The notes: generated by a model not told the origin, from the letters alone. Shown: positions 7,450 to 25,264, counted from the stretch's first letter. The stretch: 64,000 bases of DNA from Dehalococcoidia bacterium (GCA_050011565.1 JBEKIW010000003.1:28137-92136), one strand, 5' to 3'. Translations and numbers: made by a program.

Positions 7450-7548
7450 TTCCCCTCTACCTCGAAGGGGAGAGGGGAGCAGGCATTCACTGGGATTTAC
7501 GTATATTCCCTCTCCCTTGACGGGAGAGGGCAAGGGTGAGGGTGAAAT
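7450..7548. repeat. GC-rich modular intergenic repeat, family A (degenerate copy)
   Basis: Hairpin ccctctccc-ttgac-gggagaggg, a gcaggcattca..ggatttac core, and a gggtgagggtga tail. Same module order as 8866-8965 and the reverse complement of 25492-25612. Confidence 0.7.
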
Positions 7549-7829: not shown

Positions 7830-8339
7830 TTATTCTTCCAGTATAGCCTTGATATCCCTGGTGGCGCCGGCCATCACCTCGCGTATGCGCTTCATTTTGT
7901 CGGGCTCTATGCTCCGTGCCCGCTGCTTCATCAATCGCCCCAGCTCCCTGAAGTCGCCCATCATGTCCATAATTATGCCCATATTCTCCGGGTTCCAGTG
8001 GTGCTTCATGTGGTTCCTGACTTCTGCGGCCTGGTCCTCCCGCTCCAATAGGAACTTGCTGCCCTCTTTGGTTATGGTATAGACCTTCTTGCCGTCACGT
8101 TCTACGGAGCTGGCATAGCCCATTTCCTCGAGCATCTGCAGCGTGGGATAGACCACGCCCGGGCTGGGCGTGTAAAAGCCGTGCGAGCTTTCCTCGAGGG
8201 CACGGATGATTTCGTACCCGTAACGCGGCTTCTCTTTCAGCAGGTCGAGTATCACATATTTCAAGTTCCCCTTGTGAAAGGGACTGCCATGACCAAACCC
8301 GTGGAAATGTTCAGCTCCCCAGGCTCTACCTCTAAACAT
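7830..8339 (-). CDS. PadR-family transcriptional regulator
   Basis: Winged-helix motif YVILDLL..PRYGYEI...TPSPGVVYPTLQMLEEMGY. ATG 8339 has an AAGGAGG SD 8 nt upstream. The ORF-track GTG at 8369 is probably not used. Confidence 0.85.
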   Translation of the reverse strand: MFRGRAWGAEHFHGFGHGSPFHKGNLKYVILDLLKEKPRYGYEIIRALEESSHGFYTPSPGVVYPTLQMLEEMGYASSVERDGKKVYTITKEGSKFLLEREDQAAEVRNHMKHHWNPENMGIIMDMMGDFRELGRLMKQRARSIEPDKMKRIREVMAGATRDIKAILEE

Positions 8340-8376
8340 ATCTATTACCTCCTTTAAACTCAAGTGCACCCACTAT

Positions 8377-8610
8377 TTAATCTTTCGATTGGAAATGTCT
8401 GCTATGCCAGTGCCACATTCTGCCAACCCTAGCTGCCGCGGCCGCCAGAGGTGCTACCGCTATCCACAGCGTGATGGTCATCAGCATGGCCATGGGATAG
8501 TCAATGCCCTGCCATCCCATCTTAGGAGCAATAACGCCCCACAGCAGCATGAAGAACAACGAACTCAGAAAGAAACCCGGAATTGCCGCCAGAATTCTAA
8601 AGTAACCCAT
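8377..8610 (-). CDS. small 2-TM membrane protein, paralogue of 7555..7767
   Basis: 77 aa with an AAGGAGG SD. By eye about 80% nt identity to 7555..7767. Confidence 0.7.
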   Translation of the reverse strand: MGYFRILAAIPGFFLSSLFFMLLWGVIAPKMGWQGIDYPMAMLMTITLWIAVAPLAAAAARVGRMWHWHSRHFQSKD

Positions 8611-8831: not shown

Positions 8832-8965
8832 ACCCCGCTCATTCTGAGCTTGTCGAAGAATCTCTTTATTCTCTCTCCCCTGATGGAGGAAGGGTGGGCA
8901 GGCATCCAGCGAGGATTTACTCCCGCTGGGATATGGGGAAGGAGATAGTCAGAGTGAGGGGGAAA
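8832..8965. repeat. composite intergenic repeat: family C module (8832-8865) followed by a family A element (8866-8965)
   Basis: The core ggcaggcatccagcgaggatttactcccgctgggata is identical to the reverse complement of 25544-25580. Confidence 0.75.
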
Positions 8966-8999: not shown

Positions 9000-9034
9000 A
9001 GTCATATAGGTACTACTTGGAGGGGGTGGTTCAA

Positions 9035-9715
9035 ATGGCACAACAAAATTCAATGGTAATCCAGATTTCCCTGGGCTGGGCTAATGCCTTTGTCATTCGG
9101 GGCAAGCGCCCGGTGCTGGTCGACACCGGCTATCCCGGCAGCGCTCCCGCCATTATCGACAAGCTCACCCAGAACGGCGTCGACCCCGGCTGGCTCTCCC
9201 TCGTCCTCATCACCCACGGTCATTCCGACCACTTCGGCAGCGCCGCCGAGATTAAGAAGCAGACCGGCGCGCCTGTTGCCGTTCACAAGCTCGATGCCGG
9301 AGCCTTAAAAACAGGTCGAGACCCTTCGCTTAAGCCGACCGGCTTCATCGGCAGGATGTTCTTGCCCCTGCTGGAACGCCGGGGTCCGGCCACAGCGCCG
9401 CCGCTGAAACCCGATATCATCATCGAAGGCGAGCTGGACCTCAGCAAATTCGGCGTTGACGGCAAGGTAATTCACACGCCGGGCCACACTCCCGGCTCCC
9501 TATCGGTCATTTTACCTAACGGCGAGTTCATCGTCGGCGACCTGATTATGCGCGGCATGCTTCGCTTCTGGCAGCCGAACTACCCCTTGTTCGCCGATAA
9601 CATGGAACAGCTAAACAAAAGCCTCAAGCTGATACTTCGCAAAAAACCGACAAAAATCTACTGTACCCACGGCGGCCCCTTCAGCCCCAAAGCCGTCCTG
9701 CGGAAGTTTTCCTAA
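9035..9715 (+). CDS. MBL-fold metallo-hydrolase
   Basis: ITHGHSDHFG motif, with HTPGHTPGS and a C-terminal THGGPF. ATG 9035 is preceded by GGAGGGGG. Confidence 0.85.
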   Translation: MAQQNSMVIQISLGWANAFVIRGKRPVLVDTGYPGSAPAIIDKLTQNGVDPGWLSLVLITHGHSDHFGSAAEIKKQTGAPVAVHKLDAGALKTGRDPSLKPTGFIGRMFLPLLERRGPATAPPLKPDIIIEGELDLSKFGVDGKVIHTPGHTPGSLSVILPNGEFIVGDLIMRGMLRFWQPNYPLFADNMEQLNKSLKLILRKKPTKIYCTHGGPFSPKAVLRKFS

Positions 9716-10128
9716 GCAATGCTGCCTGACATCTACTGTGCTTTGAACATTTCGCTAAATTGTTGTCCTGGCCTTCTATAAGAGGAGCGACTCGCTGGCA
9801 AGGCACAGGCAAGCCAAAAAACTAAGAGGCTTGCCCTTCAGGGATTATGTTCTAACACGACCATTGACACATGCAAAAACATGGCGCATACTAACACTAG
9901 CGATGTTTCTACATGATTTATTAGGGACTCGCAGATGGCTTTGCTTTTTATTTTCCATCGCTACTATACCACTCCTATACCAGGTTTTACATTGACCGGA
10001 TATCACACCTGGAAAAGTCTGGGCGTTGCACTTATTTTAGATGGAATAATCCAAGAAACTGTGGGAAAGGGAATTCCGCCGGTATAACAGGAAATTTCTG
10101 CAATTCATTCTTATTTGGAGGTTGAGTA

Positions 10129-11346
10129 ATGAGATTATCAGATTTTCAATGGGTCCGCAGCAGAAATAGCGTTTTCGGATTGTGTCTATACCTGGTACTG
10201 CTTGGCCTCATAATCGTTGGTGCAGCTGAATCGATAATGCCGAATGACGTCTATTCTGCCGAATCCGCTATGGCCGGGAATAAACCGGTCATCCAAGTGT
10301 TCAAGGCTGAACCCATGGAACTGGATTCCCCCGCTTCGGCCGCCGTATATACCTTCAAGGTGAAGCTCGCCACGAATGTACAGATAAGTGAGGCGGGCAC
10401 TAACATTAAAAACATCAGTAACCCTTCCGGCGCCACCCTTCAAGGGACTGCCAACGGGCTGCCGGCCTCCTCAATACCGACGGATGGCAGCGGTAAGTTT
10501 GTCTGCACCATCGTGGCCAGCAACGAATACGGCACCAATACGGCAGCGCTAGAACTATCTATTGCCGCCAATCTTATACCGGCTGGACAATCAGGGTCGA
10601 CGGATAACCAGACCAAGCCCCGTACACCTAATTGGTTACTTCAGTTTTCCACGCCAAGTACTTCAACTCCGTCGACTGGGTCTAAGACTGGTTCTGAACC
10701 TGTGTTTTTCACATGCCCCAGCAGCTGCGAAGCCTGCCTGAAACCTGAGGACGCAGCCAGCCGTGGGTACACCCAGAGATGCTCCGACCAGCCCTGCTAT
10801 TACTCCCCTGATAACCAGCAAAAGTGGTATTGCTACAGCGAGCCGGAAGGCTGGTGCTGCGCCAATGAAAAAGTCAGCCAGACCACCAAACGTGAATGCA
10901 CCCAGATGGGAGGCTCCTACTGGTCCACCAACCAGAACGAGGCACTACAAGCCTGCCAGCCGGTAGGCTGGTGCTGCAGGGACGGTAATCTATACCAGGC
11001 CACCAAGGATCAGTGTGCCCAGATGGGAGGCTCCTACTGGTCCACCAACCAGAACGAGGCACTACAAGCCTGCCAGCCGGTAGGCTGGTGCTGCAGGGAC
11101 GGCAATCTATATCAGTCCACCCAGGCTCAGTGTACCCAGATGGGAGGCTCCTACTGGTCCACCAACCAGGCCCAGGTCGTGGCAAGCTGCCGTCAGGCGG
11201 CGACGTGCTGGTGCTGCGCGTCCGGCAAGGTCTTTCAGACCACCCAGGCTCAGTGCACCCAATCCGGAGGGGCCTGTTATTCCACCCAATCCCAGGCGGA
11301 CGCAGCCTGCCGTCAGACACAAATACGCACCCCCACCTTAAAGTGA
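10129..11346 (+). CDS. secreted or membrane-anchored cysteine-rich repeat protein (four 39-aa GWCC repeats)
   Basis: N-terminal hydrophobic anchor, beta-rich region, Ser/Thr/Pro linker, then Cys-rich repeats. GGAGG SD. Confidence 0.75.
   Translation: MRLSDFQWVRSRNSVFGLCLYLVLLGLIIVGAAESIMPNDVYSAESAMAGNKPVIQVFKAEPMELDSPASAAVYTFKVKLATNVQISEAGTNIKNISNPSGATLQGTANGLPASSIPTDGSGKFVCTIVASNEYGTNTAALELSIAANLIPAGQSGSTDNQTKPRTPNWLLQFSTPSTSTPSTGSKTGSEPVFFTCPSSCEACLKPEDAASRGYTQRCSDQPCYYSPDNQQKWYCYSEPEGWCCANEKVSQTTKRECTQMGGSYWSTNQNEALQACQPVGWCCRDGNLYQATKDQCAQMGGSYWSTNQNEALQACQPVGWCCRDGNLYQSTQAQCTQMGGSYWSTNQAQVVASCRQAATCWCCASGKVFQTTQAQCTQSGGACYSTQSQADAACRQTQIRTPTLK
10849..11320 (+). repeat. in-frame 117-bp tandem repeat, about 4 units, inside the CDS
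   Basis: cagatgggaggctcctactggtccaccaaccag recurs at 10903, 11020 and 11137 (period 117). Units 1-2 are near-identical at DNA level, and unit 4 is diverged. Confidence 0.85.
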
Positions 11347-11399
11347 CGGTTTCTATTTAGCAGGCCCGGGAAAGTTGGAATAAATATGGAGGTAGTTAA

Positions 11400-13082
11400 A
11401 TGAGGATATCGAACTTCGGAAAGTATCGTTGGGTAGCGGTCTTTTTCAGGTTATGCCTGGTTGCCGTAGTTGCCCTGTCACTGGTTATGGGAGGCATGGC
11501 ACTGAAGGTCCAGCCTGTACACGCTGCTACCGTTATACCTCTTTTTATAACTGCAACATTCCCGGCATGCCAGTCCTGGTCACAGCAACTTACCGTTACA
11601 CCAGCTTGTACTCCATCATTCATTTTCTTTTGGCTGGTGGGGACATTGCCGGGATTTGCAAACCTAAATCCAATTACCGGGGAACTCACATGTTGCCCTC
11701 AACCCACGGATGTTGGCGTCTATAACTTTGACATTATATGCACCGAGATGTATTGGCCCAGTGCGTGTTGGCCTCCCATTCACACGACTATTCCTGTCAG
11801 CCTCACTGTCACACCACCTCTCCCCACTACCCCCCTGACTATCAACCCAACGTTTTATCCGGTAGCCTGGGAGGGCCTACCGTTCTCCATGACGCTGAGC
11901 GCCACCGGTTGCTCAGGAGCATATAGCTGGGGCGCCTTGGGATTACCTGCCGGGCTTTCCGTGACAGACAACGTCCTCGGCATCATCTCCGGCACGCCCG
12001 GCCCGGGCACTTGCGGCACTTATACCGTAACAGTTACTTGTACTGATACACTTATGTGCCCTACAGCAGCATGCTGCCCACCCGTCAGCCGTCCCTTCAT
12101 CTTTATCGTTGATTGTTGGGCTAACTACCTTCCCATCTTTTACTACACTACCGCTTGCGATTTCACGGTCGAAATCGGCTCCGGTCTCACGCAGGGTCAG
12201 ACAAAGGTGTTGGTCGATGGCGCAAATAAGGCCACCCTGGTAGGAGGCCAATCTGAAACCTTTACCTCAGTGCCGTGCGAAAGCCATCTGGTGATGGTAG
12301 ATCAAGCGGTACAGGTCCCGAACTCCAATATGAAGTTCACAGTCATAGGTTCAAATACCAAGACGGTGTCCGATGTAGACAACCATGCCTATTTCGATTA
12401 TGCGCAGGAGGTAAATATCACCACGGCCAGCGACCCGTCCGGAGCGGCACAGCCGCCGGGCACCGGCTATTATGCCATAGGCAGCAATTTCAGCAGTACC
12501 GCGCCGGGCACCATTGAAACCGATATCCAGAACGGTAAAAAGTTGGTCTTCCGGGAATGGAGGCTGCCCGACGGCACCACGCGCCCCACCAGGGACCTGA
12601 TATTCCCCGTCAACCAGGCAGGGACCGTCACCGCCGCATACGATACTTTTTATCAACTGCGACTGACCTCGGATTACCCGGCCATAGACGAGCGCTCCTT
12701 TGAACCCGCAGGCAGCACCGCCACCTGGAACCTGTCGCTGCACGCAGTCCCCTTGCTGGGCTTCTGGGGTTTCCTGGGTGGAGTACAAAGCCCGCTGAAC
12801 GCCAGCGGCAGCCAGCTTATTACCGGACCCACCACCGTAGAAATCCAATGGGGGCCCAACTACACCATGCCCATTGTAGCCATAATAATTGCATTGCTGG
12901 TCATAGCCGGCCTGATCGTTCTCATATACCGCCTCCGGTCAAGGCCTGCCGCCAAAACCGAGGTAAAGGAAGCTACACCTAAGGCTAAAAAAACAGCGGC
13001 TGAAAACTTCTGCCCTAAATGCGGCAACCCTGTCGACAAGGATGCAGACTATTGCAAAAAGTGCGGAAAGAAACTTAAATAG
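11400..13082 (+). CDS. Cys-rich surface protein with putative Ig-like domains, a C-terminal TM helix and a cytoplasmic zinc ribbon
   Basis: Signal peptide ending VHA-A. Motifs LPAGLSV..GIISGTPG..GTYTVTVT (putative Ig type). TM helix IVAIIIALLVIAGLIVLIY followed by CPKCGNPV..x..CKKCGKKL. Confidence 0.75.
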   Translation: MRISNFGKYRWVAVFFRLCLVAVVALSLVMGGMALKVQPVHAATVIPLFITATFPACQSWSQQLTVTPACTPSFIFFWLVGTLPGFANLNPITGELTCCPQPTDVGVYNFDIICTEMYWPSACWPPIHTTIPVSLTVTPPLPTTPLTINPTFYPVAWEGLPFSMTLSATGCSGAYSWGALGLPAGLSVTDNVLGIISGTPGPGTCGTYTVTVTCTDTLMCPTAACCPPVSRPFIFIVDCWANYLPIFYYTTACDFTVEIGSGLTQGQTKVLVDGANKATLVGGQSETFTSVPCESHLVMVDQAVQVPNSNMKFTVIGSNTKTVSDVDNHAYFDYAQEVNITTASDPSGAAQPPGTGYYAIGSNFSSTAPGTIETDIQNGKKLVFREWRLPDGTTRPTRDLIFPVNQAGTVTAAYDTFYQLRLTSDYPAIDERSFEPAGSTATWNLSLHAVPLLGFWGFLGGVQSPLNASGSQLITGPTTVEIQWGPNYTMPIVAIIIALLVIAGLIVLIYRLRSRPAAKTEVKEATPKAKKTAAENFCPKCGNPVDKDADYCKKCGKKLK

Positions 13083-13126
13083 GGCGACAATGATGACATT
13101 CTTTATCCAAGGAGGTTAAATAGAAG

Positions 13127-13417
13127 ATGAATGTACCTGCTATGGACTATATCGGCTGTGGTTTTACCTGGCTTTTTGTGCTGCTCATCCTAGGTGGATA
13201 TTTCTATATCCTGAGCAAGACAGGCAAAAAATGGGTTTTCATGCTTATATTCGCTGCAGCCTGGTTCGTTATGGGCATATCATACATATTTCTCATCGCT
13301 GGTGTAGCTGCGGGTGCATGGTCTATCACGCTCATTAGAACAATCGGATATGTGTTGTTTCTATCAATGATATTGACAGCAATCGCGGAACTGGTAAAGT
13401 TGGGGGGAAAAGAATAA
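13127..13417 (+). CDS. small 3-TM membrane protein
   Basis: 96 aa with an AGGAGG SD. Third gene of the cassette, 44 nt after the previous stop. Confidence 0.6.
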   Translation: MNVPAMDYIGCGFTWLFVLLILGGYFYILSKTGKKWVFMLIFAAAWFVMGISYIFLIAGVAAGAWSITLIRTIGYVLFLSMILTAIAELVKLGGKE

Positions 13418-13427
13418 ATTAGCACGT

Positions 13428-13682
13428 GTGTTGAGTCCGCATAACGCCGGGACATACCCAGGCTTCCTATCGGTGATTCTGCCCGACGGTGAATTTATCA
13501 GCGGCGACCTTATTATGAAGGGGATGGTTCGCTTCTGGCAGCCGAACTACCCGCTTTTTGCCGATAACATGGAACAGCTAAACAAAAGCATCAAGTTGAT
13601 ACTGCGCAAAAAGCCGTCAAAAATCTACTGCACCCACGGCGGCCCCTTCGACCCCAAAGCCGTCCTGCGCAGGTTCTCCTAA
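13428..13682 (+). pseudogene. 3' fragment of an MBL-fold hydrolase gene (duplicate of 9476-9715)
   Basis: Encodes ..LSVILPDGEFISGDLIMKGMVRFWQPNYPLFADNMEQLNKSIKLILRKKPSKIYCTHGGPFDPKAVLRRFS. This aligns with the last 75 residues or so of the intact gene. The similarity continues about 55 nt past both stop codons. Confidence 0.8.
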
Positions 13683-13831
13683 GCAGTGCTTCCTGACATC
13701 CAACGTGCATTGAACATTTCGCCCTTTTGTTGCCTTAGAGGTAAGATATCAAGCCCTCCTGCACCCAAATGGCTGCCCTGATGGGTTTCAAGGATTGACG
13801 CTAGCCAGACTCCGGAATCATCTGCCCTTAT

Positions 13832-14488
13832 CTATTTTAATAACCGTAGCTTCAGAGCAAGCCCTCTATCTTCGATTCCCATTTCTGAAAAGCTTATTTG
13901 CGACGACGATATTATTTTCTGAAATTCCTGCAACCTCACAGACGAGTGAAGCCTTACAAAATACAGGACGAGAAAGGATAGGAACCAGCCGTACCTATCT
14001 TTTAGCTGCATTCTCGCCTCCCTTGTAGTGTCTTGTCTTAGCTCGTAAATCCATGCTTCACCACCAATCTTAAGAACGCGATGTATTTCTTTCAAGCATT
14101 CTCTGGGATTCGCCCAGTGATGAAAACTGAGTGTGCTTACGATTAGGTCAAAATATCCATCCCCATAAGGAATATGCTCTGCACTGCCATACTCAAATTG
14201 AACACGTCCGGATAGTTCAGCATCTTTAGCGTTCTTGCTAGCTATCATCACCATGGCTGAGGAAATATCGATGGCTTTAATCTCAACATTCTGAGACCTT
14301 CGAGCCACCTCAATCGGAACATAGCCAGGCCCTGTTCCTATGTCTAATAGTTTCCCCGACGATACCTTTGAGATAATCTCTCCTGTAACCTCTCGGTAGA
14401 AGTCTTGCATAATTGGGCTTCTAGCCACAATTGTTGAATAGACTTTTGCCCCAGGCTTAGGAATACCCTCGATCTTTAAAAGCTTCAT
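13832..14488 (-). CDS. class I SAM-dependent methyltransferase
   Basis: LLDIGTGPGYV motif I and FDLIVSTLSFHHW. Confidence 0.8.
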   Translation of the reverse strand: MKLLKIEGIPKPGAKVYSTIVARSPIMQDFYREVTGEIISKVSSGKLLDIGTGPGYVPIEVARRSQNVEIKAIDISSAMVMIASKNAKDAELSGRVQFEYGSAEHIPYGDGYFDLIVSTLSFHHWANPRECLKEIHRVLKIGGEAWIYELRQDTTREARMQLKDRYGWFLSFLVLYFVRLHSSVRLQEFQKIISSSQISFSEMGIEDRGLALKLRLLK

Positions 14489-14505
14489 AAATTAACCCAA
14501 GGACT

Positions 14506-14817
14506 TCAATGGGGGACCAGAAACTCACCAAGGCAAAAAACCAGAATATCAAAGCCAATAAAGATAGCTAAAAAAACAAGGATAGAGCGCTCCTTGCTTT
14601 TTATGATGCCGATAAGTCCGGTAACAAAGGCAGCTACACCACAGGTCCCCGCGAGAAACATCGGGACTGTAAGCAGAAGGTTACTGAAGAACGTTTCGCC
14701 ACCCCGCTGTCCGGAAACAACCAGGATGATAAACAACACCAAAAACAGAATGAAAGCCGCAATCAGGCCGACTGACCATTTACCCAAAGAGGTTTTTGGT
14801 AAAACATCTATCCGCAC
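14506..14817 (-). CDS. small membrane protein (3 TM)
   Basis: Hydrophobic 103-aa ORF, 17 nt upstream of the methyltransferase gene on the same strand. Confidence 0.5.
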   Translation of the reverse strand: MRIDVLPKTSLGKWSVGLIAAFILFLVLFIILVVSGQRGGETFFSNLLLTVPMFLAGTCGVAAFVTGLIGIIKSKERSILVFLAIFIGFDILVFCLGEFLVPH

Positions 14818-15000
14818 AATACTATCCTAGAACGTAATTTGATTGAAGTCAATATGTCAGTCAGAATGGGCCGGCATACTTGAGTCCCTGACAGGTTCAT
14901 TCAACTCCTGCATGCATTTGTTTCTTACTTGTCAGAAGCGCGACAGCTCGTTGTTTCGCTTGAGGCGAGCATGACTTGAATAACCCGGAGGGGGTCGCGA

Positions 15001-16563: not shown

Positions 16564-16734
16564 TTCTACCTCCCGTCCGAATGGCGTTGCCGATATTGTA
16601 CAATAGCACCAGCCTTGTCACCAATGTGCCGGCCTTGCCTAAGAAGGGCAACTAGCTTCCTTTGGTTGTCTGCGAGCCAGGACTATGCTGCCGATAACGC
16701 CCTACTTGTCAGGACATGGTTGCCCGTTTGCCTC

Positions 16735-17101: not shown

Positions 17102-17488
17102 TTAAGTAGGACGAATCGCTTCCTTTGGTTGTCTGCGAGCCAGGACTATACTGCCGATTATTCCTGTCAGGAAAGCCAGCAGAATAACGTATAAGATAAG
17201 GTTAGCCATCGTTTCAGGAACGAGCTCAAGAAATACAAAACCGATAGGGATAGCAATAGGAGCAGCTCCTGTCATTATCAAGAAGGTCCTGAGCAAACCT
17301 GCCACCTTTCCTTTCAAAGTCAAAACTAGCAACGCTATCCCGAGGAAGAAGAACAAAGCAAAAACCAGAAGGGGTAAAAAGGCCATATAAGTAAGAGTCC
17401 ATTGTCCCACGGCTGGAATGAAATTCACTGCCAGGACTAAAAAATCTCCGACCAGTGCCCAGAATACCGGCCAAATTGCTTTCTTCAT
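17102..17488 (-). CDS. membrane protein (4 TM)
   Basis: Hydrophobic 128-aa ORF. Its 3' end is duplicated at 16655-16714. Confidence 0.55.
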   Translation of the reverse strand: MKKAIWPVFWALVGDFLVLAVNFIPAVGQWTLTYMAFLPLLVFALFFFLGIALLVLTLKGKVAGLLRTFLIMTGAAPIAIPIGFVFLELVPETMANLILYVILLAFLTGIIGSIVLARRQPKEAIRPT

Positions 17489-17810
17489 CTTCTCACCTAC
17501 TTTTTCACCGATTTCACGTGTTCGTACTTGAGTTTAGTCCCTATCCTGAAACACTGTCAATGCCCTAAAAACGGGATGAACCCACTGTGCCTCTTATCGG
17601 CGACAACATCCAATTTGAAGTATCCCTGTGAAGTTGACCCTACTAAACAAAAGCCGACCGCCTACTCCTGGGGCTATTGTGCTTGTGGACTCACTCGAGA
17701 AGTGATATAAGTACTGGGCGTAGGTCAGCACATTCTGGCTCAGACTTGTCATTTGGCCTAGACGAAATAGGACCCAAATCAACAAAATGTGATGGTTGGG
17801 AGAGGGAGTA

Positions 17811-20267: not shown

Positions 20268-20671
20268 TTTCGATTAACGAATTTTCCCTACCATAATGAC
20301 CGATTAAACGAACACGATGCTACGCAGCTAATGCTGCAGCAAGTTCTTTGGCCGGAGCTTTGCACGCCGGCACCGGTGAGCCTCTTGGCATTGTGGACCA
20401 GCCGGAGGATTTGGGGGCTGATGTTACCTTTGAAAAGCCGTTCTAGCCCAGCCTAGGTGTAGACGGGATGGCCCTGGGGTATGCTCAGGACTTTCTCGTC
20501 CTGGGCGATGACTAAGTGTTCCCCAGCACCAACTGAACACTGTACTACCACTATTAAAGTGACAATGAAATCAACTTATTATTGCACATTCCGTCATTTT
20601 GTTTAGTATCGCATTTCATTCCGTCGTTTTTCGTTTGCCCCGTACGAGCCAGACTGCTATACTAACCAATC

Positions 20672-20911
20672 GTGGACTACGAGATTGTTATCGGGCTGGA
20701 GGTGCATGCCCAGCTATTGACTAAGAGCAAGATGTACTGCTCCTGCAGCGCTGATTATGCCAATGCGCCGCCTAATACACACGTCTGCCCCATCTGCCTG
20801 GATATGCCTGGAGTGCTGCCCACAATCAACCAGATGGCTCACAAAGCGCCAGGATGTCAATCTGACTTCAGGCTGTCGGGCAAGCTATATGAGAGACCAC
20901 AGTTTGTCTAG
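20672..20911 (+). pseudogene. 5' fragment of gatB (duplicate of 23792-23953), with its promoter retained
   Basis: The first 54 codons ([47 protein letters not shown]) match the gatB N-terminus, then the sequence diverges and stops. Upstream similarity runs from about 20595. Confidence 0.8.
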
Positions 20912-23532: not shown

Positions 23533-23752
23533 CCTCCTTTATAATAGCAATCCCAGGCCTTTTTAAAAGATGCAAAGCTTGCTTTTTGCCCATTCTAATC
23601 AATTCGCTTTGCCATTACAATTATCCAACATCAAAAATCATTGCTTCCGAGAAACACTTAGACCGATTGCGCACAAACACGCTATCTTGTGCAGCCTCTC
23701 ATAACGACCCGTCATCTTATTTAATGACGCACTTTACGCCGTCGCTAATCGT

Positions 23753-23781
23753 TTGCCTCATACAAGCTGGACTGCTATACT
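23753..23781 (+). promoter_or_regulatory. candidate gatB promoter giving a near-leaderless mRNA
   Basis: TTGCCT, a 17-nt spacer, then TATACT (23776-23781). The GTG start at 23792 is only 10 nt after the -10 box and no SD is present. Confidence 0.35.
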
Positions 23782-23791
23782 AACCGACGTT

Positions 23792-25264
23792 GTGGACTAC
23801 GAGATTATCATAGGGCTGGAGGTGCATGCCCAACTGCTGACCAAGAGCAAGATGTACTGCTCCTGCAGCGCCGATTATGCCAATGCGCCGCCTAATACAC
23901 ACGTCTGCCCCATCTGCCTGGGTATGCCCGGCGTGCTGCCCACAATCAACGAGAAGGCGATAGAATATACGGTGATGACTGCCCTGGCCCTCAACTGCAC
24001 CATCGCCGAACATGCCAAGTTCGACCGCAAGAACTATCCTTACCCCGATTTGATGAAGGGCTATCAAATTTCACAGTACGATGCGCCAATGAGTAAGAAC
24101 GGCTGGCTGATGATTGACCTCGACGGCAACAAAAAGAGAATCGGCATTACACGCGTGCACCTGGAAGAGGACGTGGCCAAGCTGACTCACTGCACCTCGC
24201 CGGAGGGCGAAACTTACAGCCTGGTGGACGTCAACCGCTCCGGCGTGCCATTGATGGAAATCGTCGGCGAGCCGGATATCAGCTCACCGGAGGAGGCCAG
24301 GCAGTACCTGATGAAGCTGCGCACTATTCTCCAGTACCTGGGCGTGTCCACAGGCAATATGGAAGAGGGGAGCTTCAGATGTGATGCCAATATCAGCATC
24401 CGCCCCAGGGGTACCAAGGAATATCTGTCCAAGGTAGAGGTCAAGAACATGAATAGCTTCAAAGCCGTCTACCGGGCGCTGGACTATGAGGCTAAACGCC
24501 AGCACGAGGTGCTGGAAAAAGGCGGTAAGCTGGTGCAGGAGACGCGCGGCTGGGTAGAACCGAAAGGCATAACCGTGAGTCAGAGAAGCAAGGAATATGC
24601 ACATGACTACCGCTACTTTCCCGAGCCTGATTTGCCGCCGCTGGTCTTCAGCAAGAAATGGGTGGAGGAAATAAGGTCGCGACTGCCCGAGTTGCCCGAC
24701 GTCAGGCGGGACCGCTTTATGTCTCAGTACGGACTGCCGCTTTACGACGCCACCCTGCTGGTAGATTCCAAATCCATGGCTAACTACTTCGAGGATTGCG
24801 TTAAGCTGATGGGCGCTTCCAACGGGGCCGACCTGCCTAAAAAAGCAAAGACGGTAAGCAACTGGCTGCTGGGGGACTTTCTCAGGCTGCTCAACGCCAG
24901 CAATACCAGTATCGAGAATACCAGGGTCAGCCCCAAGCATCTGGCGGAGATGCTGAATTTGGCCGAAAAAGGAACGCTCAGCGGGCCGGCGGCTAAAGCC
25001 GTCTTCGAAGAGATGTTCCTCAGCGGCAAGAAAGCCGCAGACATCGTGGCCGAGAAGGGCTTGAGCCAGATAAGCAGCTCGGAGGAACTTGAGAAAATAG
25101 TGGCCGAGGTGATAGCCGGCAACAGCCAGGCGGTCTCTGACTATGCGTCAGGGAAGCCGCAGGCGCTGGCGTTTCTAATCGGCCAGGTGATGAAAGCTAC
25201 CAAGGGGCGGGCGAATCCCGCCACAGCCAGGGATATCCTGTTACATAAGCTCGGAGGGAAATAG
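23792..25264 (+). CDS. gatB: Asp-tRNA(Asn)/Glu-tRNA(Gln) amidotransferase subunit B
   Basis: [13 protein letters not shown]-terminus, with full-length GatB motifs and a C-terminal GatB_Yqey region. The GTG start is supported by alignment with the duplicated stub. The ORF-track start at 23753 coincides with the -35 box. Confidence 0.9.

Follow-up and report, generated by a model that had tools for sequence, protein, structure and literature searches.

How did the last part of an intact gene for an MBL-fold hydrolase come to stand a second time beyond three genes of putative surface proteins, and do these genes form one captured cassette? The locus lies in a 64,000-nucleotide stretch (the window) of the genome of a Dehalococcoidia bacterium (GCA_050011565.1), and a preliminary description had read it as a three-gene operon inserted between the MBL gene and a displaced copy of its 3' end. 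We think it reasonably likely that the duplicated MBL tail is instead an old, decaying scar of one-ended homologous recombination in a much-shuffled variable region. The anchor gene and the repeat are laid out as follows.

9017 to 9715, plus strand: intact MBL-fold hydrolase gene, 232 aa from TTG 9017 (Pfam Lactamase_B, E 1.4e-29).
9476 to 9765, plus strand: repeat copy A, MBL residues 153-232 and about 50 nt past the stop codon.
9716 to 9765, plus strand: conserved post-stop sequence of about 50 nt, marking the limit of homology to copy A for copy B, for the copies of G004 and G008 and for the G005 remnant.
13444 to 13732, plus strand: repeat copy B, MBL residues 153-232 and about 48-50 nt after the stop codon, with the 5' part absent.

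A repeat search aligns 9491-9765 with 13458-13732 as an ungapped direct repeat of 275 nt (84% identity), and gapped alignment, which places a 1-nt indel close to where copy B begins, widens it to about 9476-9765 against 13444-13732. Whole-genome BLAST of the 2.0-Mb genome returned exactly two copies (85% over 280 nt). The recurrence of the MBL 3' end at 13444-13737, first noted with a divergence of about 10-15% judged by eye, is thereby borne out at 84-85% identity, as is the lack of a 5' part in the second copy, which holds residues 153-232 and post-stop sequence only. Misassembly does not account for the structure: in run X1, which probably represents the source sample, Logan contigs cover 11140-15000 with zero differences, and contigs from two unrelated samples (X3 and X5) cross the left junction of copy B (13202-13518) with 1-2 differences. 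No circular or excised form was seen in the contig-level read data. The post-stop 50 nt could be ruled out as a dispersed repeat, there being just two copies genome-wide; a REP-like element at 7505-7547, distinct from it, is dispersed. Neither leader nor repeat matched an RNA family in Rfam, whose only matches, elsewhere in the window, are a NiCo riboswitch and 5S rRNA.

The MBL gene may start at ATG 9035, which relatives back, rather than at TTG 9017. Its product falls below every cut-off of the NCBIfam beta-lactamase models (top match 68.7 bits, cut-off 240), so we rejected assignment to subclass B3 or class B metallo-beta-lactamases and retain only a generic MBL-fold hydrolase. Orthologues of 64-86% identity occur in 8 of the 13 genus genomes, and MBL, PadR and upstream 2-TM mini-proteins make up a conserved block that anchors a hypervariable region.

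The divergence of the two copies speaks to their age and origin. Copies A and B differ at a dS of 0.54 with a dN/dS of 0.16 (0.157), and the MBL orthologues of this genome (G000) and of G004 or G008 differ at a dS of 0.55-0.63 with a dN/dS of 0.11-0.19; because the distance between A and B matches that between orthologues of different species, copy B is not the displaced end of the resident gene, as had been supposed. A maximum-likelihood tree of 44 MBL 3' ends, built from short alignments (240-290 nt) that leave much of it unresolved, likewise places copy B outside the clade of copy A, G004 and G008 (support 87/81). Over residues 153-196 the nearest relative, L137, is identical to copy A at 122/134 positions (91%) and to copy B at 108/133 (81%), which marks copy A as the vertically inherited copy over that stretch. 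Across the tree the B copies are polyphyletic, with A copies standing among them, and require at least two origins and most parsimoniously 6; the segment identities of A and B against 15 relatives form a mosaic with no clean donor or recipient assignment for G000. The nominal open reading frame in copy B (13428-13682) begins at a GTG without a Shine-Dalgarno (SD) sequence. We regard copy B as the putative remnant of another lineage's MBL allele, a pseudogene fragment that has lost its 5' part.

Between the copies lie a promoter-like site and three genes.

9864 to 9892, plus strand: promoter-like sigma-70 site of the Cys-Ig module, TTGACA-17-CATACT (10/12 consensus matches).
10129 to 11346, plus strand: Cys-rich secreted protein of 405 aa (Cys); behind the signal anchor come an Ig-like domain, a low-complexity linker, a Cys-rich module and the four GWCC repeats.
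11400 to 13082, plus strand: Ig-like surface protein of 560 aa (Ig); a signal anchor is followed by five beta-sandwich domains in tandem, Ig/cadherin-like in type, and by a TM helix (489-513), a basic tail and a Zn ribbon.
13127 to 13417, plus strand: TM96, a small hydrophobic protein of 96 aa, with three TM segments judged by eye.

The tight spacing given in the preliminary description holds for all three genes, with intergenic gaps of 53 nt (11347-11399) and 44 nt (13083-13126) and a GGAGG before 3/3 starts, and its reading of the products largely stands (a Cys-rich repeat protein, an Ig-like surface protein, its TM helix and its Zn ribbon), the three TM segments of TM96 being assigned by eye only. 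What had been taken for a single 410-nt leader is in fact an MBL-distal spacer of about 150 nt, the promoter-like site and a 5' untranslated region of about 236 nt. Both promoter hexamers are invariant across 14/14 aligned loci of relatives, and the same site also stands before both pairs of G011 and in G016, G005 and G013. Cys lies directly upstream of Ig in 17/17 loci with that side visible, and the order MBL, promoter, Cys, Ig is the commonest state of the locus in the genus (G004, G005, G008, G011, G013, L059-L069, L084 and L137). As a module of two genes, Cys and Ig are inseparable, have a conserved promoter of their own and have long been resident at the site.

The four GWCC repeats of the Cys protein measure 39 aa each. 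Its AlphaFold2 (AF2) model has a mean pLDDT of 75.7, with about 70-92 per 10-residue block in the repeats, and a fold search of the PDB matched only the N-terminal Ig-like domain, leaving the GWCC repeats without a match; its 174 homologues are, where a source is named, all hypothetical or from Chloroflexota/Dehalococcoidia. The 560-aa protein scores above the Pfam gathering threshold for He_PIG (37.8 bits, cut-off 24) and matches Zn_Ribbon, although the ribbon is present in some orthologues only. Its AF2 model (mean pLDDT 80.4) has five beta-sandwich domains, for which Foldseek returned strings of Ig and cadherin domains, and by Pfam and this modelled tandem ectodomain it is a predicted He_PIG, or bacterial Ig-like, surface protein. 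Its N-terminal region (11519-11782) is only 44% identical between G000 and L137, whereas the flanks are 99% identical. We infer a surface function for the pair, which probably forms a complex of the adhesin or receptor type whose outer domain evolves fast.

The part of the locus to the right of Ig has a history of its own, which involves two further features.

13731 to 14498, minus strand: methyltransferase segment, with the gene at 13832-14488 (Pfam Methyltransf_11).
14499 to 14875, minus strand: right conserved flank of the variable slot, with the gene of a 103-aa membrane protein at 14506-14817.

TM96 was found in G000, G013, G010 and L082 only, besides two weak matches in another family, and accompanies Cys-Ig only in G000 and in the lineage of G013. 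In G010 and L082 it follows MBL directly, past a terminator and with its own promoter, and Cys-Ig is absent; G010 is not a deletion derivative of an MBL-Cys-Ig-TM96 order, having the terminator and separate promoter in place of any remnant of the Cys promoter. TM96 is an independent unit outside the Cys-Ig module, and so the suggestion that the three genes travel together stands for Cys with Ig but not for TM96. The methyltransferase segment, which matched nothing in any fetched locus, begins exactly at the right edge of copy B, and contigs of X3 and X4 join 13730 to 14499, making the segment a separate present/absent unit. The right flank is 92% identical to G004 and 94% to L137, homology resuming there exactly at 14499. 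L137 lacks 13101-14498 (TM96, copy B and the methyltransferase) but carries Cys-Ig, and relative to L137 the newcomer is therefore this right-hand block and not the operon. Synteny in relatives had been expected to show MBL followed directly by the methyltransferase; no such empty site (MBL joined straight to the methyltransferase or to 13733 onward) was found in the 13 genus genomes, 19 genome contigs and 80 metagenome contigs that we surveyed.

Partial MBL 3' ends are common at this locus in the genus, with left edges at residue 121, about 145, 153, about 160, 195-197 and 208, and their junctions fall into the following classes.

Ig terminator to residue 121 (type-1): G004, G008, L059-61, L085, L086, L088, L090, L092, L093.
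TM96 to residue 153: the present genome (G000) only.
Ig to about residue 145: G016 (another genus), frameshifted.
Ig to about residue 160: L117.
w_128 to residue 195: G004, G005, L076.
SIMPL pair to residue 197: L137.
HEPN-MNT to residue 208: L071, L074, L078, L081.

The residue-121 architecture is common to G004, G008 and at least nine metagenome contigs, and in G008 the type-1 locus has later undergone an internal deletion of 380 nt. The cargo bracketed by the tails comprises the Cys-Ig pair, HEPN-MNT toxin-antitoxin (TA) pairs, a SIMPL pair and the methyltransferase, and G004, G005, L076, L081 and L089 carry two or three tails each. At the right edge, where measured (G000, G004, G008 and the G005 remnant), homology stops 45-50 nt past the stop codon and gives way to genome-specific content. 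The tails decay, with stop codons in L088 and L092, indels in L059 and the loss of most or all of the tail in G008, L080 and L137. Type-1 tails are mostly open nonetheless, with a dN/dS of 0.21 among B copies, and the open frame and dN/dS of about 0.2 in most of them could reflect selection on a truncated product rather than conversion. A functional mini-gene in copy B, suggested by the low dN/dS, appears unlikely because copy B has no SD sequence, because the sole in-frame start in type-1 loci sits within the Ig terminator hairpin, and because two copies contain stop codons and the tail has been lost from three loci. In G004 the two copies are 95.8% identical over residues 153-232 with flanks at only 82% and 76%, a contrast that we read as gene conversion.

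The event that left such tails appears most clearly in L137. The last 100 nt or so of its intact MBL gene are foreign, being 83-84% identical to the displaced tail of L137 itself as well as to copies A and B of G000, and the displaced tail retains the native downstream sequence, 91% identical to copy A of G000. The SIMPL cassette between them has its empty site in G000, and L137 offers a clear worked example of such an event.

Together these observations are consistent with the favored reading, one-ended homologous recombination, whose mechanism and direction in each event we infer from the scars. The region would have been reshuffled between lineages with the last 100-400 nt of MBL as the homologous end and an illegitimate junction as the other, possibly through single-crossover (Campbell-type) integration of a circularised fragment or through homology-facilitated illegitimate recombination of linear DNA. 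Each event would keep MBL whole and leave a 5'-truncated MBL tail further downstream, and such tails may afterwards decay or be partly overwritten by gene conversion. Copy B would be one of these tails, brought in from the MBL allele of another lineage and now a pseudogene, while Cys-Ig would be the long-resident, self-promoted module to which TM96 and the methyltransferase were separate additions. No empty site was found for the 3.97-kb unit in the loci surveyed, and the junction of TM96 with residue 153 may have arisen in either direction and in any number of steps.

A further, tentative possibility, which we hold to be distinctly less than an even bet, is that the MBL tail and its 50-nt trailer serve as a portable homology handle, and the DNA between two copies as a recombinase-free mobile cassette, one that host RecA would loop out and that would then insert again at the MBL gene end of another species. 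If true, this, together with the two further insert-flanking duplications of the window, would point to a general mode of gene capture that drives accessory-genome turnover in a streamlined, largely IS-poor class.

The constant right edge and the methyltransferase indel that starts exactly there, at +50, would also fit a site-specific process, in which the post-stop sequence would be an att-like site and a recombinase encoded elsewhere would move recombinase-less cassettes, much as with integron attC sites, Xer-dependent elements or the Dehalococcoides ssrA islands. The measured tails do end at one place before contents that differ between genomes, the site serves several kinds of unrelated cargo, other contigs of the genome encode 10 tyrosine and 2 serine recombinase homologues, and in Dehalococcoides accretion in tandem is known for the 3' end of ssrA (PMC3146451). 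We nevertheless consider this unlikely, as the left edges are spread between residues 121 and 208, the SIMPL cassette of L137 has its start at the stop codon and not at +50, and no conserved inverted-repeat core was found at the cassette ends. No tyrosine or serine recombinase gene was detected on the 306-kb contig C3, nor any recombinase among neighboring genes in relatives, and a Pfam scan of all open reading frames between and beside the repeats revealed no transposase, integrase or other gene of a mobile element. A recently exchanged TA segment, 97-100% identical between L071 and L074, extends from about +31 past the stop as far as the point where the tail begins, and so ends before the tail rather than at the +50 edge; taken as a discriminator between site-specific and homologous transfer this cassette fits allelic replacement and does not discriminate.

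The recent insertion of a three-gene, 3.97-kb cassette (leader, Cys, Ig and TM96) behind MBL, with a target duplication of about 290 bp, seems to us improbable. Direct repeats do flank the block, MBL is intact, no mobility genes lie within, and the same type of event is clear for the SIMPL pair of L137 and documented for restriction-modification genes (PMC2853133). Against it, the repeats are 15% diverged (dS 0.54) with substitutions resembling purifying selection and B is not the nearest relative of A, Cys-Ig occupies the site in most of the genus, TM96 is independent of it, and L137, the nearest relative, has Cys-Ig but neither TM96, copy B nor the methyltransferase. The earlier idea of a capture scar is thus retained in part: the locus is a recombination scar with an intact MBL gene and a truncated copy downstream, but not a recent capture peculiar to this genome.

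An ancient tandem duplication, in which two complete MBL genes around Cys-Ig were followed by independent truncation of the downstream one in each lineage, might explain the low dN/dS (0.16-0.21 for A-B and B-B, as if B had long been functional) and the different left junctions, but is equally improbable, because two full MBL copies, the outcome named in advance as fatal to an insertion, occur at no locus in the 13 genus genomes and 80 metagenome loci, the residue-121 truncation is common to many diverged lineages and the truncated state hence old, B copies interleave with A copies, and the short tails behind TA, SIMPL and w_128 cargo would be left unexplained.

Insertion with long target duplication was reportedly described by Nobusato et al. 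in 2000. The repeats tabulated for such insertions measure 46-423 bp (Furuta, Abe & Kobayashi 2010, PMC2853133), and as here they are unique sequences of tens to hundreds of bp, often a gene 3' end, which enclose accessory genes without a transposase or integrase; our repeats exceed 30 bp (about 290 nt, two copies in 2.0 Mb) and enclose no mobile gene. Whereas the published cases are restriction-modification genes between near-identical repeats with a demonstrable empty site, the present repeats differ by 15% and stem from different lineages, the surface pair is one cargo among others, several tails of one gene are nested at a single locus, and no related genome provided an empty site for the 3.97-kb unit. 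Homology-facilitated illegitimate recombination and Campbell-type integration are known from laboratory transformation and conjugation (PMC3240628). Here they are read only from scars in uncultured genomes, yet one homologous end with one illegitimate junction would explain the fixed edge, the variable junction and the intact target.

A constant 20-bp repeat, a fixed point of insertion and a serine-recombinase (DsiB) integration module characterize the ssrA islands of Dehalococcoides (McMurdie et al. 2011, PMC3146451). They belong to the same class of bacteria and resemble our locus in their tandem arrangement 3' of one conserved gene, in direct repeats of the gene 3' end and in the absence of integration genes from some of them, but our repeats measure 60-400 nt, have variable left ends and a protein-coding target, and lack a recombinase. 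Like an integrase island, the locus has 3'-end repeats at far boundaries and tandem units (two or three tails in five loci), but no recombinase lies beside an attachment site and the varying left edges leave no constant crossover core. With regard to an integron (intI with attI, and cassettes that end in structured attC sites), the contig carries no tyrosine recombinase, 10 homologues are encoded elsewhere in the genome, and the repeats are coding-sequence tails of varying length. The insertion of e14 or phage 21 into icd of E. coli is carried out by an integrase at a defined core site and brings in an insert of prophage size, features that set it apart; there too, incoming DNA supplies a diverged replacement 3' end, so that the target stays functional, and the original end remains beyond the insert as a pseudo-fragment. 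Rhs/CDI and Vibrio T6SS effector-immunity arrays are said, by Kirchberger et al. in 2017, to gain orphan modules from C-terminal displacement. As here, serial recombination anchored in a conserved gene shifts the older 3' fragments downstream and lets them build up; there, however, the displaced ends are the variable toxin parts and thus the cargo, whereas here they are tails of a conserved enzyme and the cargo is unrelated.

The scar is of a known kind, and our finding is largely corrective, in that the scar is old and the supposed cassette comprises more than one unit. Members of the Dehalococcoidia are abundant, have small genomes and are for the most part uncultured, and their gain and exchange of accessory genes is known mainly through the integrase-driven ssrA islands of Dehalococcoides. 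This locus represents a second route, apparently without a dedicated recombinase, in which one conserved gene end serves as a repeated landing strip for unrelated cargo, and its gene-tail fossils offer a means of working out in what order the events took place. The Cys-Ig pair is restricted to Dehalococcoidia, and Ig, with its hypervariable outer domain, and Cys, with its undescribed repeat, are candidates for cell-cell, cell-mineral or phage interaction. Elsewhere in the window, other duplications flank inserts at 16640/17103 and, around a penicillin amidase gene, at 20591/23709, and self-BLAST of the whole genome yields about 105 local direct repeats, roughly a dozen of which resemble such scars.

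The direct repeat at the end of the MBL-fold hydrolase (MBL) gene is real: copy A (window 9476-9765), which ends the intact gene, and copy B (13444-13732) are 84% identical over 275 nt ungapped; with one indel the repeat extends to about 290 nt. The whole 2.0-Mb genome, which comprises 8 contigs and includes the window as part of contig C3 (306 kb), contains only these two copies. As in the preliminary description, the genes between the copies are separated by gaps of 53 and 44 nt and preceded by GGAGG motifs. The locus is laid out as follows.

7830-8369, minus strand, PadR regulator
8377-8610, minus strand, mini-protein with 2 TM helices
9017-9715, plus strand, MBL-fold hydrolase
10129-11346, plus strand, Cys-rich protein (Cys), 405 aa
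11400-13082, plus strand, Ig-like protein (Ig), 560 aa
13127-13417, plus strand, hydrophobic protein TM96, 96 aa
13428-13682, plus strand, 84-codon ORF, the MBL tail
13832-14488, minus strand, class I methyltransferase
14506-14817, minus strand, membrane protein TM103, 103 aa

An assembly artefact can be dismissed as the source of copy B, because both its junctions are spanned in independent assemblies from the probable source sample and from two unrelated samples. Copies A and B differ with a dS of 0.54 and a dN/dS of 0.157 (Nei-Gojobori, residues 161-232), much like functional MBL orthologues between species of the genus (dS 0.55-0.94, dN/dS 0.09-0.19, same method), and therefore most of this divergence built up at a time when constraint at the protein level acted on both sequences; the repeat is old. 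A maximum-likelihood tree built from 44 MBL 3' ends shows the truncated copies to be polyphyletic and places copy B outside the clade of copy A and the related genomes G004 and G008. Over residues 153-196, the closest relative found, the JGI contig L137 with an upstream flank 98.5-99% identical to the window, shares 91% identity with A and 81% with B, so A is the vertically inherited copy there and B came from another MBL lineage. Copy B had been taken for the displaced end of copy A's own gene, and divergence, tree placement, and the L137 comparison all speak against this.

We compared loci from 13 genomes of the genus, 19 genome contigs, and 80 metagenome contigs, the relatives' records being from peat, wetland, and sediment metagenomes. 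Many of these loci hold truncated MBL tails that can be sorted into classes by their left junction.

Left-junction classes of truncated MBL tails (sequence joined to the tail; MBL residue at the junction; loci)
Ig terminator spacer; 121; G004, G008, and at least 9 metagenome contigs
TM96; 153; window only
Ig; about 145; G016 (different genus), frameshifted
Ig; about 160; L117
w_128 gene; 195; G004, G005, L076
SIMPL gene pair; 197; L137
HEPN-MNT toxin-antitoxin pair; 208; L071, L074, L078, L081

In G008 the residue-121 junction is followed by a 380-nt internal deletion. Homology of the w_128-class loci to the window stops at 17654-17655, where a vestige of that tail is possible and none was detected, and L089 carries a different toxin-antitoxin pair in the opposite orientation. 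Where measured (the genome under study, G000, and G004, G008, and G005), tail homology to the intact gene stops 45-50 nt past the stop codon, and beyond this right edge gene content differs from genome to genome. Two full MBL genes at one locus were found in none of the genomes and contigs compared. In the last class (L071:4055-5054, L074:8814-9810, L078, and L081), the HEPN-MNT pair lies directly behind MBL and is followed by the short tail. Between L071 and L074 this cassette is 97-100% identical and the MBL genes only about 85%, which indicates that it was exchanged recently between species.

The preliminary description had the three genes between the copies captured together as a 3.97-kb cassette. 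The observation of the repeat is confirmed, and this interpretation of it is only partly supported: the recombination scar stands, but a recent single three-gene unit does not, since Cys-Ig is widespread at the locus and TM96 is separate from it. Cys adjoins Ig in 17 of the 17 loci where both sides are visible, but in G010 and L082 TM96 follows MBL directly, under a promoter of its own and without them. Because MBL-promoter-Cys-Ig is the commonest state among the compared loci, Cys-Ig in our genome is most simply viewed as a long-term resident. Relative to L137, G000 carries an extra block (13101-14498, comprising TM96, copy B, and the methyltransferase) in place of about 40 nt of spacer, and its Ig-to-TM96 junction is shared with the related genome G013. 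In two unrelated wetland samples, contigs run from 13730 to 14499, possibly with further letters in between, and the methyltransferase segment (13731-14498) is a separate indel, present or absent in natural populations. In the most economical history, an ancestral residue-121-type tail would have stood behind Ig, TM96 would then have been imported from a G013-like lineage with the tail cut back to residue 153, and the methyltransferase would have been gained at the right edge of the tail. TM96, tail, and methyltransferase may equally have come from another lineage in one or two blocks. The TM103 segment (14499-14946) forms the conserved right-hand flank of this variable slot; its identity to G004 and L137 is 92-94%, while G004 is roughly 80% identical elsewhere in the region, which suggests recent exchange of the segment.

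The L137 locus illustrates the proposed mechanism. Two tandem SIMPL-domain genes (L137:6888-8449) lie between its intact MBL gene and the Cys-Ig promoter, and the tail behind them (residues 197-232 plus 50 nt post-stop) runs on into the usual promoter-Cys-Ig. The intact gene ends in ~100 nt of foreign sequence, 83-84% identical to the tail at the same locus and to each of the two G000 copies, while the tail is 91% identical to copy A, so that the replacement gene end presumably came with the incoming DNA and displaced the native end. Such a pattern is expected from one crossover between the chromosome and a donor fragment that had circularised; it fits equally well with linear DNA that recombined homologously at one end and was joined illegitimately at the other. 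Both models would make the constant right edge the meeting point of conserved MBL flank and variable region, and the left edge the single junction that falls at random in each event. No recombinase gene was found on contig C3 or beside any relative's locus. A bolder reading, in which gene tails of this kind would serve cassettes without a recombinase as portable homology handles across Dehalococcoidia, seems to us possible but rather unlikely.

Among described phenomena, insertion with long target duplication, as seen for restriction-modification genes (PMC2853133), comes closest; among mechanisms, it is homology-facilitated illegitimate or Campbell-type recombination (PMC3240628). In Dehalococcoides, of the same class, islands are stacked behind ssrA; their repeat has a constant length of 20 bp and they include a serine-recombinase module (PMC3146451), and the MBL locus lacks both features. 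The MBL-end repeat is a further well-documented case of a recombination scar whose kind is already known, in an informative setting.

We read the tails as probable pseudogenes that are refreshed by conversion from time to time. In G004 the two copies share 95.8% identity over residues 153-232, against 82% and 76% in the parts on either side, and this stretch is a gene-conversion patch. Most type-1 tails keep an open frame (dN/dS 0.21 for B-B versus 0.14 for A-A), with their sole in-frame start codon inside the terminator hairpin of the Ig gene, and in the window the GTG of the tail ORF at 13428 has no SD sequence. However, some tails carry stop codons (L088, L092) or indels (L059), or survive only as the first ~20 nt and ~50 nt after the stop (G008) or as the last few nt and post-stop sequence (L080, where Cys-Ig is lost too); behind Ig in L137 none is left.

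The Cys-Ig pair is not confined to this locus: in G010, and for the first pair of G011, it lies elsewhere on the chromosome, and other genera have it too. A promoter-like sigma-70-type site, TTGACA-17-CATACT (window 9864-9892), with a conserved spacer precedes it in all 14 aligned loci, and also the pairs of G011, G016, G005, and G013. Its spacer holds a conserved CATG-N6-CATG motif, a candidate operator that could perhaps serve the neighbouring PadR regulator. The Ig model (mean pLDDT 80) has a signal anchor, five tandem beta-sandwich domains, a TM helix, and a short cytoplasmic tail, which bears a Zn ribbon in some orthologues only, and in structural comparison it is matched best by strings of Ig and cadherin domains. 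The Cys protein combines an Ig-like domain with GWCC repeats (3-10 among homologues; 39-aa repeats at 10849-11320), each a predicted beta-hairpin plus helix (about 70-92 pLDDT per 10-residue block), for which a structure search found no fold counterpart in the PDB. All 174 homologues are unnamed Chloroflexota proteins, a few of which (P0019, P0095, P0110, and P0117) contain a cytochrome-b5 domain. We infer that Cys and Ig may form a membrane-anchored surface complex of the adhesin or receptor type. The hypervariable N-terminal Cys-rich region of Ig (11519-11782, residues about 40-130) is only 44% identical in nucleotides between G000 and L137 within flanks at 99%, which suggests diversifying selection or allele replacement in the outermost domain, and the locus as a whole is a fine-scale recombination mosaic. 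The Cys repeat region 10946-11095 is 100% identical between the two.

Other repeats occur in the window and genome. A dispersed REP-like GC-rich element, CCCTCTCCCTTGACGGGAGAGGGCAAGGGTGAGGGTGA (7505-7547, also 8866-8965; about 10 copies on several contigs), bears no relation to the MBL repeat. Two further direct duplications in the window bracket inserted genes. The 3' end of a 128-aa membrane gene is duplicated around a small membrane gene (16640-16695 and 17103-17158, 89% identity), and the promoter and 5' end of the gene downstream of a penicillin amidase gene are duplicated around the latter (20591-20838 and 23709-23958, 78-92% identity). Self-BLAST of all contigs for local direct repeats (length 60 nt or more, spacing 200 nt to 15 kb) returned about 105, of which roughly a dozen (60-450 nt, >80% identity, >1 kb apart), such as C1:112193/114004, C1:428717/435283, and C2:422042/429304, may be further gene-end scars.
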